NCBI GenBank assembly: GCA_945906755.1
Contig: CAMDRJ010000001.1
Location: 11,638 to 75,637 of the forward strand
DNA: 64,000 nucleotides
Direction: 5' to 3'
Origin: Klebsiella pneumoniae
GTDB taxonomy: Bacteria > Pseudomonadota > Gammaproteobacteria > Burkholderiales > SG8-39
Part shown: positions 37,769-45,145 of the stretch, piece by piece
Layout of the letters: every line of letters starts with the position of its first letter
Position numbering within the stretch: position 1 is the first letter of the stretch
Position numbers and translations under genes: made by a program
Notes under the pieces: model-generated
Databases searched by the model: none
What the model was told of the DNA's origin: nothing
The model's input: only the letters and a program-made list of their open reading frames with translations

Positions 37769-38521
37769 ATGTCCACCGCTCCACTTACCGGCAAGGCCGC
37801 ACTGATTACCGGCGGCGCCAAGCGCGTCGGGGCAGCTGTTGCCAGGCGATTGCATGGGGCCGGGGCGAATCTGGTCGTGCATTACAAGACTTCGCACCGC
37901 GAAGCCCATGCGCTACAGGACGAATTGAATGGGATTCGCGATAAGTCGGTGAGTCTGGTGCAGGCCGATCTCCTCGATATCGCCGGGTTGAGTGAACTCG
38001 TCAAGACCACCGTCTCGGTGTGTGGTCGGCTCGATATTTTGATTAACAACGCGTCCACGTTCCATGCGAGTCCGATCGGCGAGATTACCGAGCAGCACTG
38101 GGAAGACCTGGTCGGCTCCAATTTGAAAGCACCGCTGTTTCTAGCGCAGGCGGCCGCGCCGCATTTGCGACGAAGCTCAGGCAGCATCGTCAACATCACC
38201 GATATTCACGCCGACCGCCCGCTCAAGAGCTATGTGGTCTATAGCGTCGCGAAGGCCGGGCTCGTTGGGCTCACCAAATCGCTCGCGCGCGAACTTGGTC
38301 CTGAGGTGCGCGTGAATGGCGTAGCGCCCGGTCCGATTCTCTGGCCCGATGATGGATCGTTCGATGCGGTGACACGTCAACGGGTCATTTCCCATACTCT
38401 GCTGAAACGCGTTGGCGATCCCGACGATATCGCCCGGGCCGTCTATTTTCTCGTCGCCGATGCCTCTTATGTGACCGGTCAAATCATCGCGATCGACGGC
38501 GGTCGGAGCGTCAACCTGTGA
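37769..38521 (+). CDS. Pteridine reductase / FolM-like short-chain dehydrogenase
   Basis: 250 aa. ALITGGAKRVGAAV, NNAS and the YSVAKAG catalytic motif. Confidence 0.8.
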   Translation: MSTAPLTGKAALITGGAKRVGAAVARRLHGAGANLVVHYKTSHREAHALQDELNGIRDKSVSLVQADLLDIAGLSELVKTTVSVCGRLDILINNASTFHASPIGEITEQHWEDLVGSNLKAPLFLAQAAAPHLRRSSGSIVNITDIHADRPLKSYVVYSVAKAGLVGLTKSLARELGPEVRVNGVAPGPILWPDDGSFDAVTRQRVISHTLLKRVGDPDDIARAVYFLVADASYVTGQIIAIDGGRSVNL

Positions 38522-39519
38522 TGGCGATCTGGTTGTCACGGCTAATTGGCGTTGCCGCGTTGTGTGCATTGACTGTCGCGGGACATGCCCAGCAGGCACC
38601 CGAAGCGGCCCGTGAAAGACTTGGCGAACGGCCGATTATCGGCTTTGTCGAAGACGTGCCCACGACCGCGGAAGTTGCCGGAGTCGGTCAACCCGTCACG
38701 CTGGAGCCCCATGTGCGGGTCGTATTCGTCAGTACCGCAGAAGGTTGGAAACCCGCTTGTACCTATGGCGAAGGCGAACCCGAGCGCCCGGAGTGTCTCG
38801 ATCTCGATTTGATTCGTCCGGTGACCTGGACCGTCGTGCATCAAGGCAAGCGGCTTGGTGAAGTGGAAACCAACGGCTGGTACGACGCACGCTATTACCG
38901 GACACTTGGAGTCCTGAAGCGCATTTCCAAGTCTGCGCCGCGTATCGGTAAACCGGACAAAGCGTTTGCGTCGTGGCTCGCGCCTGCCGCGCATCGCCCG
39001 GTGCTCGCGTATCGCAACGTAAATCTCCCCAGCCCGACGGGTTTGGTCAATACGGGTTGGGTCAATACCAAGCCCGCAGTGACCGACATGGCGATGATTC
39101 ACGCCATGTTTTTGCTTGCGTTCAAGGCGATGCCTCACTGCGGCGCGCCACCTGGTGCAACCCAAGCCATCGAAGCGAAGCACCTGTTCGTTTCGCATTC
39201 GACGCGCAATAAAGCGGGCGATCGTCTTCTAGGCGTACGGCTTGACCCCAAGTTCGCGAAGGGCTGCGAGGGGCCGCTTGGCTTGGAATGGTCCGATCTG
39301 TGGTTTTACGCCGCGGCTGATAAAGCACCGGTCATGTTGCCGGTCGAAATCGAAAATGACATGGCCCCTTTTCGCATGTCGCTGGTCGAAATGAGCGACC
39401 TCGACGGCGATGGCAAACCCGAAGCGCTGTTTTGGTTTTCGTCGCATAGCGTCGAGGGCTATCTCTTGGTCCATGATCAATTCGAGCGGCAGGTTCGCTT
39501 CATCTGGAAATATCAATGA
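38518..39519 (+). CDS. Secreted hypothetical protein
   Basis: 333 aa. Signal peptide [27 protein letters not shown]-terminal DLDGDGKPE motif. 4-nt start/stop overlaps with both neighbours. Confidence 0.7.
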
Positions 39520-40418
39520 ACGCCCCCGATTTTCTTAAAGCAGAAAAGGCCGCGCGCGAGGCCAACAAGCTCGATCGCAGGCTCTGCCGGGCGGTGGGTC
39601 AGGCGATATCTGACTTCGACATGATTCGCGCGGGCGATCGCGTGATGGTGTGCTTATCAGGCGGCAAAGACAGCTACGGCATGCTCGATATCCTGCAAAA
39701 GCTGCGGGTGCGGGCGCCGATCGATTTCGAAATTATCGCGGTCAATCTGGATCAAGGGCATCCGGGATTTCCAGAGCACATCCTGCCCCATTTCCTCACC
39801 AAGCAAGGCGTGCCGTTTCGCATCGAAAAGCAGGACACCTATTCCATCGTGAAGCGGGTGGTCCCGGAAGGCAAGACGATGTGCTCGCTTTGCTCGCGCT
39901 TGCGGCGCGGCGTGTTGTACCGGGTGGCCGGCGAGCTAGGTGCGACGCGCATCGCGCTTGGCCATCATCGCGACGACATCATGGAAACGTTTTTCCTCAA
40001 TCTGTTTTTCGGCGGCAAGCTGAAAGCGATGCCGCCCAAGCTGGTGTCCGATGACGGTCGCCATGTGGTGATTAGACCGCTCGCCTATGTGAAGGAAGCT
40101 GATCTCGAACAATACGCAATCGAACGCGCGTTCCCGATCATTCCATGTGATCTCTGTGGCTCGCAAGATATGCTGCAAAGGAAGCAGGTGAAGGCGATGC
40201 TGCGCGATTGGGAGAAGCGTTTTCCCGGTCGTGTCGAGTCGATCTTTAGGAGCATGCAGAACGTGCGCGGTTCGCATCTGCTCGATCGCTCGCTCTTCGA
40301 TTTCGTCAATCTCGCCCCCACCGGCGTGCCCGATCCAGAGGGTGACAAGGCGTTTGATGGCGATCCTTGCGAAACGCCCGCCACGACCGGCTTCCCGATT
40401 CCGGTGACCAGTCGGTAG
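39516..40418 (+). CDS. ttcA: tRNA 2-thiocytidine(32) synthetase
   Basis: PP-loop CLSGGKDS, plus the cysteine motifs [10 protein letters not shown] and PCDLCGSQ. Confidence 0.95.
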
Positions 40419-40537
40419 TCGGTCCAGCCGGCGTCGGGTGTAAAGGGCGGCGTTCCCCAACGCTGCGCGGCGGCCGGCAATCGCCCGCCCGAGCGCGAAA
40501 TTCACGGATTGGAACAATTGGTTTGCCAGATCCATGT

Positions 40538-40556
40538 TGTCAAAGTAAACTTGACA
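40538..40556. promoter_or_regulatory. TGTCAA-N7-TTGACA palindrome overlapping a -35-like TTGACA; candidate operator/promoter
   Basis: tgtcaaagtaaacttgaca lies 20-30 nt upstream of the HTH-encoding ORF start. Confidence 0.3.
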
Positions 40557-40575
40557 TGATAGTCTCGCCGCACAC

Positions 40576-40851
40576 TTGAAGGATGCCATGCCCAACGTTC
40601 CCGATCGTCTTATCGCGCTGTTCGGTTCCCAGGCCGAAGTCGCTCGCCGCCTGCGGATCGACCGGGCCGTGATCAGCCATTGGGTGAAATGCGGTTATGT
40701 GCCTGCGCGTTGGTCGATGGAAGTCCAGTCGGTAACCGGCGGACAGATCGGCGCGGATGAGGTGCTGCGGGAAGCCACGCTCGCCAAACCGATTCGGTTG
40801 AAATCACGCTCCGACGATGACTCAGTTTCTGCTAACCAGGAAGGACACCAC
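40576..40851 (+). other. In-frame 5' extension of the aminotransferase ORF encoding a Cro/YdaS-like helix-turn-helix domain
   Basis: LFGSQAEVARRLRIDRAVISHWVKCGYVPARWSMEVQSVTGGQI fits the YdaS/Cro-like HTH pattern. Possible starts are TTG 40576 and ATG 40588, the latter with GAAGGA 4 nt upstream. There is no stop before the aminotransferase. Confidence 0.6.
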
Positions 40852-42102
40852 ATGAATCAATTTGCCCCCGCCAAGCGCATCACTTCATTTCATCCGCCGC
40901 AACGCACATTGATGGGGCCCGGGCCCACCGAGATTCATCCGCGCGTGCTCACCACGATGAGTCAGCCCGCGATCGGCTATCTCGATCCGGTGTTCGTCGA
41001 GATGATGGAAGAACTCAAGTCGCTGCTGCGTTACGCCTATCAGACTAAGAATCCGCTGACCTTCCCGGTGTCGGGCCCAGGCTCGGTGGGGATGGAATAC
41101 TGCTTCGTCAATCTGGTCGTGCCAGGCGACAAGGTGATCGTCGCCCGCAACGGCGTATTTGGCGGCCGGATGATCGAGAACGTCGAGCGCGCGGGCGGCA
41201 AGGCGATCGTCGTCGAGAGCGAATGGGGCGAGCCGGTTGATCCGAATAAGGTCGAAGAAGCCTTCAAGGCCAATCGCGATGCACGGCTGTTTTCATTCGT
41301 GCATGCGGAAACCTCGACCGGCGTGCAATCGGATGCGAAGACGCTCGTCGCCCTGGCGCATCAGTACGAATCGCTCGCGATTGTCGATGCGGTCACGTCC
41401 CTCGGCGGCTCGCCGCTCAAGGTCGACGAGTGGAATATCGACGCGGTCTACTCCGCCAGCCAGAAATGCCTGTCATGCACGCCCGGCCTGTCGCCCGTGT
41501 CGTTTTCCGAGCGCGTGGTCGATTATGTGAAAGCCCGCAAGGACAAGATCAAGAGCTGGTTCATGGATATGAATCTGTTGCTTGGCTACTGGGGTGCCAC
41601 GACCCGCACTTACCATCACACCGCGCCGACCAATTCGCTGTTTGGATTGCATGAGGCGTTGCTCCTCATTCGCGAAGAAGGGCTCGAGAACTCCTGGGCC
41701 AGGCATGCCCGCCACCACTTGGCGCTCAAGGCCGGTCTGGAGGCGATGGGTCTGCAATTCTTGGTGAAAGAAGCCTATCGGCTCCCGCAAATGAATGCGG
41801 TGCGGATTCCCGAGTCGATCCAATCGAAAGATGCCGATATTCGCAAACGGCTCCTCAACGATTTCAATCTCGAAATCGGTGCAGGGCTCGGACCTTTGGC
41901 TGGCAAGATCTGGCGGATCGGTACGATGGGCTACAGCTCACGACCGGAGAACGTAATGCTGTGCCTCTCGGCGCTTGGTTCGGTGCTGGATGACATCGGC
42001 TACAAGATTCATGTCGGTGACGCGGAAGCCGCTGCGCACCAGGCCTATGCCTCACTCCACGCCAAAGCCGCGCAAGCCAAGCAGCAGAAGAAGGCTGCGT
42101 AA
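40852..42102 (+). CDS. Class V aminotransferase (alanine-glyoxylate / serine-pyruvate aminotransferase type)
   Basis: MNQFAPAKR... start at ATG 40852 with AGGAAGGA upstream. LMGPGPTEIHPRVL N-terminal motif and SASQKCLS PLP-lysine context. Confidence 0.88.
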   Translation: MNQFAPAKRITSFHPPQRTLMGPGPTEIHPRVLTTMSQPAIGYLDPVFVEMMEELKSLLRYAYQTKNPLTFPVSGPGSVGMEYCFVNLVVPGDKVIVARNGVFGGRMIENVERAGGKAIVVESEWGEPVDPNKVEEAFKANRDARLFSFVHAETSTGVQSDAKTLVALAHQYESLAIVDAVTSLGGSPLKVDEWNIDAVYSASQKCLSCTPGLSPVSFSERVVDYVKARKDKIKSWFMDMNLLLGYWGATTRTYHHTAPTNSLFGLHEALLLIREEGLENSWARHARHHLALKAGLEAMGLQFLVKEAYRLPQMNAVRIPESIQSKDADIRKRLLNDFNLEIGAGLGPLAGKIWRIGTMGYSSRPENVMLCLSALGSVLDDIGYKIHVGDAEAAAHQAYASLHAKAAQAKQQKKAA

Positions 42103-42124: not shown

Positions 42125-42162
42125 AAGGGCCACATCGGATTCGGGCGTGGCCCTTTTGCTTT
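42125..42162. terminator. Rho-independent terminator candidate (bidirectional) between convergent genes
   Basis: aagggccac (42125..42133) pairs with gtggccctt (42147..42155), followed by ttgcttt. Confidence 0.6.
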
Positions 42163-43213
42163 ACATCTTCAGCACCACCCGACCAACGATCTTGCCGTCC
42201 TTCAGCTCTTGCAACGAGCGCTCGACTTGATCGAGATTGCGCGTCTCAATCGGGATCGATTTCAATTTGCCGGCGCGGGCAAGTGCGACGACTTCCTTCA
42301 GTTCGGCAACGGTGCCCACATACGAGCCCTGAATCGCGATACAGCGCTGGGCGATTGGCACGAGGCTCACCGGTATCTCGCCACCGAATAGTCCGCAGAC
42401 GACGTACTTACCGCCTTTGCGTAGCGATGCCACACCAAGCGTTGCCGTCTCGGTGGCGCCGACGAGATCAATCACGGCTTGGGTGCCGCCCCCCGACATC
42501 TTCTGGAGTTTGGCAAGCGCTTCCTTGTCGCGCGAATCGAGCACCGCGCTGGCGCCGGCCGCTCTTGCGGCATCGAGTTTCGCCGCATCGATGTCGACTG
42601 CCACCACGTTGCGATGTCCAAGCGCCTTGAGGATCGCAATACATTGCAGGCCGAGGCCACCCGCGCCCATCACGACCACCCAATCGTCCGCCTCAAATGG
42701 CCCCGCTCGCCGGATCGCGCCGAAGGTCGTTAGACCCGAGCAGGCGAGGGTCGCAGCAAATGCCGGTTCCACCCCCGCCGCATCGACCAGGTAGCGTGGA
42801 TGCGGAACGATCAGGTAATCCGCATAGCCGCCTGGGCGTCCCACGCCCATGAAGCGCGGCGCCATGCAAAGATTGTCATTACCGCTGTTGCACTTTGCGC
42901 AGTTGCCGCAGCCGGTCCAGGGACAGACGAGTCGATCTTGCCCGATCGGCACAGCACCCGCGTCCGGCCCGGCCGCCATCACCGTGCCCAATGGTTCATG
43001 GCCCATTGTGATCGGCGGCTTCATACCGCGTTCGGTCATGTAAAACCGCTTGCCGCCACCCAATTCAAAGTAGCCGTCCCGGATGTGCACATCGCTATGG
43101 CAAACGCCTGAATACTTGAGCTTGATCAGCACTTCGGTGCCGGTGGGCTTCGGCGTCTCGCGCATTACGCGTTGTAAAGGCTTGCCCCAATCAACGACTT
43201 CGTAGCTCTCCAT
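42161..43213 (-). CDS. Zinc-dependent alcohol dehydrogenase (MDR family)
   Basis: ORF 42161..43330; likely start MESYEVVDW (43213). Signature GVCHSDVH and GAGGLG. Confidence 0.85.
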   Translation of the reverse strand: MESYEVVDWGKPLQRVMRETPKPTGTEVLIKLKYSGVCHSDVHIRDGYFELGGGKRFYMTERGMKPPITMGHEPLGTVMAAGPDAGAVPIGQDRLVCPWTGCGNCAKCNSGNDNLCMAPRFMGVGRPGGYADYLIVPHPRYLVDAAGVEPAFAATLACSGLTTFGAIRRAGPFEADDWVVVMGAGGLGLQCIAILKALGHRNVVAVDIDAAKLDAARAAGASAVLDSRDKEALAKLQKMSGGGTQAVIDLVGATETATLGVASLRKGGKYVVCGLFGGEIPVSLVPIAQRCIAIQGSYVGTVAELKEVVALARAGKLKSIPIETRNLDQVERSLQELKDGKIVGRVVLKM

Positions 43214-43421
43214 CTTGGCGTCTCCTTGTGAGTCTTCCGCGTTTCCACCGTCGATTCTAATCGCGATGGCAGCAAGCGCGGCATTTGCACTCTGCCCACC
43301 GCCCGATCCGGCCGATGAGCCTGGATGCATGCCCGGTTGAGCAACTCAAGCGGTCCTGCGAAGTGTGACAACCAGGCGATCGACGTTCTGTCGGATTCGC
43401 TCCATCGTTCAGGAGAATGGC

Positions 43422-43840: not shown

Positions 43841-45145
43841 GTGAAATTTCGTCGCACCTGTGCTTTCTTTAGCACGCTAGCGCAAAATGCGCGCATTAGA
43901 GCTTTACAGATGTTCCCTCCCAGCATGACGCACGACGAAGCACGCACAATTTCGTGGCGCTCGATCGCATCCATCACCCTCGTGGTGCTTGGCGTCGTCA
44001 TCGTGGTCGCGTTCGGATGGCAGGCCATTCGTGCCGAAGACGACACACGTACGCGCCTTGCCAATGCGCAAGCTCTCACGCGCCATGTCCTCGAGTTACG
44101 TTATCTGGCCGCTGATCTTGATGCTGCGCAAATCGTCTATGCGATTGAACTTTCGCGGAGCGGTCAAGCAGACCTAAAAGAAGGTCATCCGGTAAAGCTG
44201 GCGTTTTCGGGTGCCCTGACTGCATATCGTTCAAGGCTCGCCGCGATCGATGTGGCGCGCCTCACCATCGATGAGCAACGTCATCATCAGGCCGTGCAAC
44301 GCGCATTCGAGCTGTTTGCCAAATCGCAAGAACGAATGCTCGCCAGAAATCGGCAAAGTGCTGCCCAGGCTGGCGGCGCATCGCAAGACGGCAATGTCAA
44401 GCCGTCCTTCAAGCCTTCCGTGGAATTGGTGGCAGAGTTGGTGGAGCGCGTGAGTTCGCGCGCGGACCGGGCCGCCGTATTGGCCGCGCATGCGAGTGAC
44501 TACGCCGGGATATGGAAAGTTGTGGTCGGGGCAACGATCGCATTGCTTGGCGCGCTCTTTGGTGTGATCAACGCGCGGACCATCATGCAACGCGTCGGTC
44601 AAATCGGCAGCTTCGATCCGTTTTCGGGCATCGATCAACTGACTTCGGTGGCCAATCGCCGTCGCTTTGACGAAGAGTGTCCACGCGCCTTGGAGCGCGC
44701 TCGTCGAACAGAGCGTGAAGTCTCGGTAGCCAAGCTCGATCTGGACAATTTCGATGTGATCAGCGGGACCAATGGCCATCTGGCGGGCAATCGCTTGCTG
44801 GCGGCGACTGCGGCGTCGATATCTTCGCGTTTGCGGGAAGGGGACATGATTGCGCATTATGGTCCGGAGGAATTCGCCATCATCCTGCATGGATGCAGTG
44901 CCGATGCCGCGCGCGAAATTATCGATCGGGTTCGGGAGCTGGTTCCTGAAGGCCTCACGTTTTCCGCTGGCGTTATGGCTTCCGACGGCCATGAAGACGC
45001 GGCCATGACGCTCGCGCGCGCGGACCAAGCCCTTGATGCCGCGACGCATGCAGGACGCAATCGCACCGTCATCATGCGTCGTGATGCAACCGTCGAGCTG
45101 CAGCGCGACACCGACTTGCCGTTTGTGGTGGTGCGACGGGGCTAG
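43841..45145 (+). CDS. Membrane-associated GGDEF-domain protein with a degenerate active site (GPEEF) and retained RxxD I-site
   Basis: TM segment ITLVVLGVVIVVAF. GGDEF domain with LDLDNFDVISGTNGHLAGNRLL and REGD-MIAHY-GPEEF. The start may be further downstream (MFPPS at 43910). Confidence 0.8.
   Translation: MKFRRTCAFFSTLAQNARIRALQMFPPSMTHDEARTISWRSIASITLVVLGVVIVVAFGWQAIRAEDDTRTRLANAQALTRHVLELRYLAADLDAAQIVYAIELSRSGQADLKEGHPVKLAFSGALTAYRSRLAAIDVARLTIDEQRHHQAVQRAFELFAKSQERMLARNRQSAAQAGGASQDGNVKPSFKPSVELVAELVERVSSRADRAAVLAAHASDYAGIWKVVVGATIALLGALFGVINARTIMQRVGQIGSFDPFSGIDQLTSVANRRRFDEECPRALERARRTEREVSVAKLDLDNFDVISGTNGHLAGNRLLAATAASISSRLREGDMIAHYGPEEFAIILHGCSADAAREIIDRVRELVPEGLTFSAGVMASDGHEDAAMTLARADQALDAATHAGRNRTVIMRRDATVELQRDTDLPFVVVRRG

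Follow-up and report, generated by a model that had tools for sequence, protein, structure and literature searches.

What does a metabolic aminotransferase do with a phage-type DNA-binding domain on its N-terminus, and how is such a protein expressed? The question is raised by one gene in the 64-kb window analysed here (64,000 nucleotides of contig CAMDRJ010000001.1, assembly GCA_945906755.1, order Burkholderiales), in which a Cro/YdaS-type helix-turn-helix (HTH) domain is joined to a class V aminotransferase of the AGXT family (alanine-glyoxylate aminotransferase, AGT). Numbering refers to positions of the window; WIN is the window locus, and L001, L005 and so on are related loci. Judged by comparison of these loci, the fusion is ancient and selected, and it runs through a large clade of uncultured Burkholderiales from soil and freshwater. 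We think it fairly probable that the product of the gene is a "trigger enzyme", a bifunctional enzyme and repressor that represses its own gene, occurs as two proteoforms and descends from a domesticated prophage Cro.

The open reading frame (ORF) as called mechanically spans 40576..42102, 508 codons opening with TTG; ATG 40588 is the likely start, giving 504 aa. An initial annotation of this DNA, made from its letters alone, had placed HTH and aminotransferase in one frame with no stop codon between them. No stop codon separates the two parts, and each sequence feature that it listed is present at its coordinates. A scan of one genome per GTDB species returned at least 552 relatives, and the loci analysed are the best 80 (73-94% identity), metagenome-assembled genomes (MAGs) of uncultured Burkholderiales or Betaproteobacteria from many projects. 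The HTH frame runs into the aminotransferase without a stop in 80 of 80, each a different species-level MAG (L060 is intact). The upstream extension, which might have proved unrelated between species, is conserved in the orthologous loci. The best 120 protein clusters listed give the same picture: all 120 are about 500-517 aa long and combine PF15943, with or without PF14549, with PF00266, down to 76% identity. The 504-aa window protein itself has an identical copy (P0001) in public data. The pairwise ratio of nonsynonymous to synonymous differences per site (pN/pS) is 0.29 in the HTH, 0.42 in the linker and 0.20 in the enzyme, with synonymous sites near saturation. The value for the HTH implies that it is translated and constrained, and by this measure the domain is under purifying selection.

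The aminotransferase appears to be complete. PF00266 (class V aminotransferase) scores 66.5 bits against a threshold of 21.5, and the PDB sequence matches include Nostoc AGT (1vjo, E = 1e-103), PucG (3isl, E = 2e-85) and human AGXT (E = 1e-78). The window protein reaches none of the NCBIfam equivalog thresholds (BhcA, 208 against 650). Three residues are invariant among 41 aligned homologs: the pyridoxal 5'-phosphate (PLP) lysine K293 (SASQK), D267 (IVDAVTS) and R443 (KIWRIG). From the alignment we take them to match K209, D183 and R360 of human AGT, and they presumably act as the Schiff-base lysine of PLP in SxQK, the aspartate at the PLP pyridine and the arginine for the substrate carboxylate. 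The catalytic residues are intact and we predict that the enzyme is active. The closest solved structures are dimeric AGTs, and the AGT body of the fusion is probably homodimeric.

In the mechanism that we propose, a sigma-70-type promoter would drive a monocistronic fusion gene, with a dyad lying over the -35 element and the spacer. The 5'-proximal ATG would give the long form, in which the Cro-type HTH is followed by a basic tail, then by a flexible linker of ~20-40 residues and finally by the aminotransferase. An internal Shine-Dalgarno (SD) sequence and ATG 40852 would give the short form, the enzyme alone, from the ancestral AGT start. Free Cro proteins dimerise weakly; here the enzyme body would supply dimerisation, because AGXT-family enzymes are obligate homodimers. 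A long/long dimer, with two HTHs, would bind the dyad and occlude RNA polymerase, which would result in negative autoregulation. A long/short heterodimer, with one HTH, would bind poorly, and the ratio of starts would tune repression. A scarce first start lacking an SD, combined with an efficient internal start, would set a low repressor-to-enzyme ratio, and read-through transcripts from ttcA would favour the short form. More speculatively, occupancy by PLP, pyridoxamine 5'-phosphate (PMP) or substrate might modulate DNA binding.

We infer repression, the leaderless transcription start, the use of both starts, the way in which heterodimers would act and ligand control. Least secure are the binding of DNA at the dyad, the leaderless start and the heterodimer logic. 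The fully specified scheme is possible but tentative: a captured prophage Cro on a core aminotransferase, a scarce leaderless repressor-enzyme beside abundant plain enzyme, and repression through the 19-bp dyad by long/long dimers only. If it is true, the enzyme level, and possibly its PLP or substrate state, would be read directly as promoter occupancy. This would be an undescribed route to homeostatic control of a metabolic enzyme using a phage part.

Table 1. Coordinates of the features of the fusion gene and its upstream region in the window.
Feature	Coordinates	Strand	Remarks
ORF of the predicted long proteoform: HTH, tail, linker, AGT; 504 aa	40588..42102	+	stop TAA 42100..42102 included
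All-alpha Cro/YdaS-type HTH, residues 1-66	40588..40785	+	Pfam, AlphaFold2 (AF2), Foldseek, pN/pS
Conserved basic tail KPIRLKSR	40786..40809	+	P68, K72, S73, R74 invariant; consensus KPxRxKSR
Variable disordered linker, residues 75-88; encodes internal SD	40810..40851	+	predicted local distance difference test (pLDDT) ~30-45; pN/pS 0.42
Predicted short proteoform, AGXT-family class V aminotransferase, 416 aa from Met89	40852..42099	+	
Catalytic codons	K293 41464..41466; D267 41386..41388; R443 41914..41916	+	
Putative -35 hexamer TTGTCA, also operator left arm	40537..40542	+	17 nt 5' of extended -10
19-bp dyad operator candidate TGTCAAAGTAAACTTGACA	40538..40556	no strand	family consensus TGTCAAAnTnAnTTTG(A/T)CA; centre 40547
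Extended -10 TGATAGTCT, TG-A-TAGTCT	40557..40565	+	family consensus TGnTAnnnT
SD-like GAAGGA	40578..40583	+	4 nt before ATG 40588; specific to window/L001/L005 clade
Internal Shine-Dalgarno AGGAAGGA	40838..40845	+	6 nt before ATG 40852

The promoter and candidate operator

The upstream block and internal start were parsed in 79 loci and the distance from -10 to first start in 78; L021 ends at the end of a contig. All 79 parsed loci carry a conserved 29-nt block upstream of the fusion, TTGTCAAAnTnAnTTTG(A/T)CATGnTAnnnT, with at most 3 mismatches. The block is laid out as a -35 TTGTCA, a 17-nt spacer and an extended -10 TGnTAnnnT. Positions 1-6 are invariant in 79 of 79, and TG, T-12, A-11 and T-7 of the extended -10 are kept in nearly all. 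The flanks are unconserved and information content collapses outside the block, which occurs once per locus and solely upstream of the fusion gene (79/79). A sigma-70 consensus scanner missed this conserved promoter in the window because TAGTCT is a poor hexamer; the one match it gave was the non-conserved TTGCCA-17-TAAACT (40523..40551).

The palindrome TGTCAA-N7-TTGACA reported in the initial annotation is present at 40538..40556, and this window dyad, TGTCAAAnTnAnTTTGACA, spans the -35 and the spacer. The overlap with a -35 hexamer also stands, but the hexamer is likelier to be the left-arm TTGTCA than the right-arm TTGACA first proposed, because the 17-nt geometry is conserved and the right-arm TTGACA lies only 3 nt from the -10. 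In the family, the dyad TGTCAAAnTnAnTTTGnCA inside the block has 8 of 9 symmetry-related pairs conserved. The symmetric positions 9 (T) and 11 (A) are conserved though the search pattern left them unspecified. Almost no variation is seen at positions 13-20 of the spacer (TTTGnCA), which mirror the left arm, down to the central T/A pair. Conservation is unusual in a promoter spacer, and the conserved right arm in this one therefore argues for a protein-binding site.

We regard the 19-bp dyad as a candidate operator that the long form would bind. The dyad is centred at about -25 from the predicted transcription start, where a protein on the DNA would block access of RNA polymerase. This start is predicted at ~40572 in the window and at the A of the ATG in loci such as L047 and L074. 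The family operator consensus has a single match in the 64-kb window, with 0.12 expected by chance, and besides this self-site we found no further operator sites (a regulon) in the window or in the related loci of ~8 kb. The sole conserved cis-element lies in the gene's own promoter, which points to autoregulation. An Rfam scan of the window found no riboswitch or RNA element.

Several points weigh against the enzyme-repressor reading. The window -10, TAGTCT, is weak, with 3 of 6 positions matching TATAAT, and an alternative promoter match (TTGCCA-17-TAAACT at 40523..40551) is non-conserved and overlaps the operator. In ~40% of loci the right arm is TTTGTCA instead of TTTGACA, so the site can also be read as a direct repeat of TTGTCA, and this A/T base shows no covariation with recognition-helix residues across the related loci. 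Promoter function alone could explain part of the block's conservation. The negative control is one unfused relative, from Sinorhizobium. At the first start, GTG is the putative leaderless start in 6 loci and ATA stands in L063.

In another explanation, the HTH binds DNA elsewhere and the dyad is a strong promoter or some other regulator's site; the HTH-AGT protein would then regulate other genes or tether the enzyme. Much of the block is -35 plus extended -10, the recognition helix does not covary with the right arm, and the site searches covered 64 kb here and ~8 kb per related locus. We nevertheless consider it unlikely. The spacer is nearly invariant exactly where it mirrors the left arm, and dyad and HTH occur together in 79 of 79 loci; the one unfused relative examined has no dyad. 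For Cro/cI-type proteins, an operator of their own that overlaps the promoter is the rule.

As a separate observation, the window shares the TTGCCA of the 40523..40551 match only with L001 and L005, the small clade that has a short leader instead of the leaderless arrangement.

Two putative translation starts

In 27 of 78 loci 6-7 nt separate the -10 from the first start, and in 45 of 78 the distance is no more than 10 nt. Anti-SD duplex energies at this start are mostly above -3 kcal/mol, and most loci outside the window clade have no SD. An ATG 6-10 nt after the -10, with no SD, implies a leaderless or near-leaderless mRNA, and we predict this arrangement in about half of the lineages. The window is not leaderless by the distance criterion, with 22 nt between -10 and ATG, GAAGGA, and a leader of ~16 nt. 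Its clade, which includes L001 and L005, has an interval of 22-23 nt, with GAAGGA in the window and L001 and GAAGAA in L005 (duplex energy -5.5 for WIN and L001, -3.3 for L005). The initial annotation had described two SD-preceded starts. This is true in the window, but the first-start SD is atypical for the family and only the internal one is found in 79 of 79 loci. In L063 (3963-4010), ATA replaces the first ATG and the promoter/operator block, with a TAGAAT -10, is intact; this could be a sequencing error or a lineage no longer making the long form.

The internal ATG is invariant in all 79 loci and is preceded, ~8-13 nt upstream, by an SD-like motif (GGGAG, GGAAAGGAAG or AGGAA). The residues encoded at this motif differ between loci and include GKEA, GSDA, GTDN, ESDP and EGHH. 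The anti-SD duplex energy averages -6.2 kcal/mol and is -4 or lower in 79/79; the in-frame background gives -2.5, and a further 1147 in-frame ATGs give -2.6. The Gly codon within the internal SD is GGG or GGA in 69 of 69 loci; gene-wide, GGR makes up 24% and GGC 65%. Elsewhere in the HTH and linker, fourfold-degenerate sites are free to vary. Codon usage at this point indicates that the internal SD is maintained through synonymous choice. A conserved internal promoter for the short form was considered and rejected, with fourfold-degenerate sites in the HTH coding region varying except at the SD.

There is thus strong comparative evidence that the ancestral AGT ribosome-binding site is still used, which would give a 416-aa enzyme-only form beside the 504-aa form. 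The gene might instead make a single regulator-enzyme, with the internal SD and ATG a tolerated remnant or in a role other than initiation, such as pausing for HTH folding. Gene callers do mostly report the long ORF, and a Met at a domain boundary could be kept for structural reasons. Against this stand the GGR codon in all 69 loci and the SD energy of -4 or below in all 79, whichever residues are encoded. With synonymous sites close to saturation, a remnant SD should have decayed, and the internal site coincides with the native start of unfused AGTs. A single proteoform is quite unlikely in our judgement.

The initial annotation had offered, as one of two possibilities, a long and a short isoform from one mRNA with autoregulation at the palindrome. 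Comparative support for this comes from the fusion in 80 of 80 loci, selection on the HTH, the internal SD and ATG, and the conserved dyad.

The HTH domain, its phage kin and the age of the fusion

We scanned the HTH with Pfam, in which the gathering thresholds are 30 bits for PF15943 (YdaS) and 30.2 bits for PF14549 (P22_Cro). The N-terminal 88 aa alone score 33.3 bits for YdaS and 29.6 for P22_Cro, the latter just under threshold; inside the full 504-aa protein the YdaS score is 29.2, borderline below. The HTH-like segment had been put forward with the proviso that it might fall short in profile searches, and the isolated N-terminus lies above the YdaS threshold. The domain also matches the phage regulator families phrog_409 and phrog_35. 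The nearest NCBIfam model for the HTH (40588..40760) is NF046037, "carph-isopro domain", at 34.5 bits with a cut-off of 38; this model also matches prophage relatives of the HTH, just below cut-off.

AF2 predicts that residues 1-66 form a bundle of five helices (4-12, 15-22, 26-35, 40-50 and 56-66), with pLDDT ~90. The best Foldseek match of this model in the PDB is 3bd1, Xfaso 1 Cro (target TM 0.85, rmsd 1.2-1.8, 30% identity), followed by N15 Cro, P22 Cro and then YdaS. The E-values are modest (2e-3) because the domain is small. The window HTH is a genuine Cro/YdaS family member. Residues 67 to ~105 are predicted to be disordered, and in the full-length AF2 monomer the AGT N-terminal arm is of low confidence and the placement of the HTH uninformative. 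The "polar linker" of the initial annotation is real but consists of two pieces, the conserved basic tail and then the variable segment with the internal SD. Within the N-terminal domain, conservation is highest in the recognition-helix region (DRAVVxxWVKxGY) and in the basic tail, which may contact DNA.

Domesticated HTH domains sometimes change function, and the YdaS and P22_Cro scores are borderline in the full-length context. A domain that has lost DNA binding and now serves as a protein-protein, localisation or stability module is still very improbable, given that the recognition-helix region and basic tail are its most conserved part, that a right-sized dyad sits in the gene's own promoter and that the fold model matches DNA-bound Cro structures.

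An HTH-only query against 1.84 billion representatives recovered the fusion family, many fusion fragments and free-standing relatives of 77-87 aa (32-49% identity), which carry a similar "E-A-x-x-x-K-P-basic" tail. The closest free-standing relative, P0158 (49% identity), is encoded in a prophage early region directly 5' of genes for a DnaB_C helicase and RusA, and its gene occupies the cro position of that region. The intergenic DNA 5' of P0158 (L081, 2415-2470) contains TTTGACAT and GTTGACAA, which are half-site words of the fusion operator, here as a direct and not an inverted pair, 32 nt apart. In the window, the family profile run against the six-frame translation gave only the one HTH. 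Four proteins, P0160 (661 aa), P0210 (744 aa), P0262 (449 aa) and P0244 (278 aa), have 5-7 tandem HTH units and match dozens of HTH families; they are unrelated to the fusion locus and may be real poly-HTH proteins or prediction artefacts.

An unfused AGT homolog on Sinorhizobium pSymA (~53% identity) is preceded by an SD of its own and an upstream stop, and lacks both HTH and palindrome. Its native start, MNAFSPP, aligns with the internal Met89 (MNQFAPA) of the fusion. The simplest history would be capture of a prophage Cro gene 5' of an AGT gene that kept its native start. The initial annotation had offered a lost stop codon between two genes as its other possibility. As a recent accident or artefact this is refuted by the 80 in-frame loci; it stands only as remote evolutionary history, because the closest free HTH kin lies at a prophage cro position and the unfused AGT starts at the internal Met. 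That the fusion is an assembly chimera, a sequencing error or a fresh stop loss in this genome only has next to no chance of being right: frameshifts and chimeras affect many of the family's database fragments, but the frame is open in 80 of 80 MAG loci, which are independent and come from numerous studies and assemblers, as well as in the best 120 clusters, and the HTH and junction are under purifying selection.

Related systems and genomic neighbourhood

As far as the alignments indicate, a DNA-binding domain and an enzyme with intact catalytic residues are conserved here as one gene, the arrangement of a trigger enzyme. PutA of Escherichia coli, Salmonella and relatives is the textbook case, a dimeric enzyme with a small N-terminal DNA-binding domain that represses its own put promoter region. 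The fusion resembles PutA in having a DNA-binding N-terminus on a metabolic enzyme and in self-repression, which is established for PutA and proposed here. PutA differs in being a flavoenzyme with a ribbon-helix-helix domain, switched by redox state and membrane binding, and its enzyme family is unrelated to AGT. We know of no second in-frame proteoform or leaderless start for PutA.

BirA and NadR have an HTH-type domain fused to an active enzyme of the regulated pathway. Archaeal RbkR is likewise a bifunctional enzyme-repressor with an N-terminal HTH-type domain fused to an enzyme (PMC5397151). All three share with the fusion the N-terminal HTH-type domain and active enzyme, and have dyad operators in the promoters they regulate. 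They differ in that their HTHs are winged-helix or Xre-type and that they control biosynthetic operons with the reaction product as corepressor. To our knowledge they do not include a PLP aminotransferase, nor any protein made in two proteoforms from a leaderless mRNA.

MocR, GabR and PdxR have an N-terminal DNA-binding domain, a long flexible linker and a dimeric PLP fold-type I domain, and they couple PLP chemistry to transcription (PMC6677901, PMC5801912). The fusion has the same order of DNA-binding domain, linker and PLP fold-type I aminotransferase-like domain. It was described from the outset as distinct from MocR/GabR, and the HTH is indeed not GntR-type and the PLP domain is class V. 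MocR proteins pair a GntR-type winged HTH with a class I (AAT-like) domain that is generally a sensor; here a Cro/YdaS HTH is paired with a class V AGXT that has all catalytic residues, and the fusion is proposed to yield an HTH-free enzyme form as well. Profile scans of the window protein matched neither a GntR-type HTH nor PF00155 (class I/II). Some homologs carry a secondary precomputed PF00155 match beside PF00266.

The window HTH has its fold and sequence family in common with lambdoid Cro (P22, N15, Xfaso 1) and YdaS (Rac/CP-933P). Lambdoid Cro proteins bind as dimers to ~17-19-bp dyad operators overlapping promoters, and lambda cI from PRM is the classic leaderless repressor message. 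A leaderless arrangement like that of cI is expected for about half of the fusion lineages. Phage Cro proteins differ in being 60-80-aa stand-alone proteins of immunity regions; here the domain is chromosomal, fixed in the clade and covalently attached to a housekeeping-type enzyme.

CheA-L/S, ClpB and IF2 are bacterial pairs made by in-frame internal initiation. Long and short forms from in-frame starts are also described for AerR (PMC6199135). As proposed for the fusion, these pairs have two in-frame starts and a short form that is missing an N-terminal functional domain and can alter the activity of the long form. We know of no such pair that joins a DNA-binding long form to the enzyme-only short form of an aminotransferase.

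Full-text literature searches found no published description of a Cro/YdaS-aminotransferase fusion, in agreement with the initial annotation, which knew of no HTH-AGT fusion of this type. Few fusions of an enzyme to a transcription factor are known to regulate their own genes, and all have proved instructive (PutA, BirA, NadR, RbkR, MocR). To these the present gene would bring a new combination, a complete class V PLP aminotransferase behind a phage Cro-type HTH, and a clear evolutionary origin, the domestication of a prophage immunity protein. Its predicted expression design is unusual, with a 5' start lacking an SD for the regulator form and an SD-led start for the enzyme form, which would set the repressor-to-enzyme ratio and allow mixed dimers. 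The candidate operator, the promoter, both starts and the limits of the domains can be placed to the nucleotide and are conserved in at least 80 species, so the proposal is testable with synthetic DNA though no host is cultured.

Pipelines label the fusion proteins plain aminotransferases, once truncated to 396 aa, which leaves the predicted regulatory function invisible in hundreds of environmental genomes. The truncated case is MSQ20709.1 (P0270), from the 90% cluster to which the window protein belongs; NCBI calls it an "alanine--glyoxylate aminotransferase family protein" of 396 aa, with MGPGP as its start (window 40924..42102). This start lies downstream of both the HTH start and Met89, and the public annotation therefore hides the fusion.

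Upstream of the fusion, a gene for an SDR-family (short-chain dehydrogenase/reductase) protein (37769..38521) is syntenic in 49 of 80 loci and a gene for a ttcA-like PP-loop ATPase (39516..40418) in 63 of 80. A 333-aa ORF between them (38518..39519) is otherwise found only in L001. We considered the SDR and ttcA-like genes as operon partners and rejected them; they are functionally unrelated, and the fusion is set off from them by its own promoter block. Downstream in the window are a Zn-dependent alcohol dehydrogenase (42161..43330, minus strand) and a GGDEF protein (43841..45145, plus strand). The downstream genes differ between loci, and the fusion gene is therefore probably monocistronic, a transcription unit of its own. 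In about a dozen loci (L012, L032, L036, L046, L048, L055, L056, L059, L062 and others), convergent metF-like (methylenetetrahydrofolate reductase) and ahcY-like (S-adenosylhomocysteine hydrolase) genes and a third gene lie 0.1-3 kb downstream.

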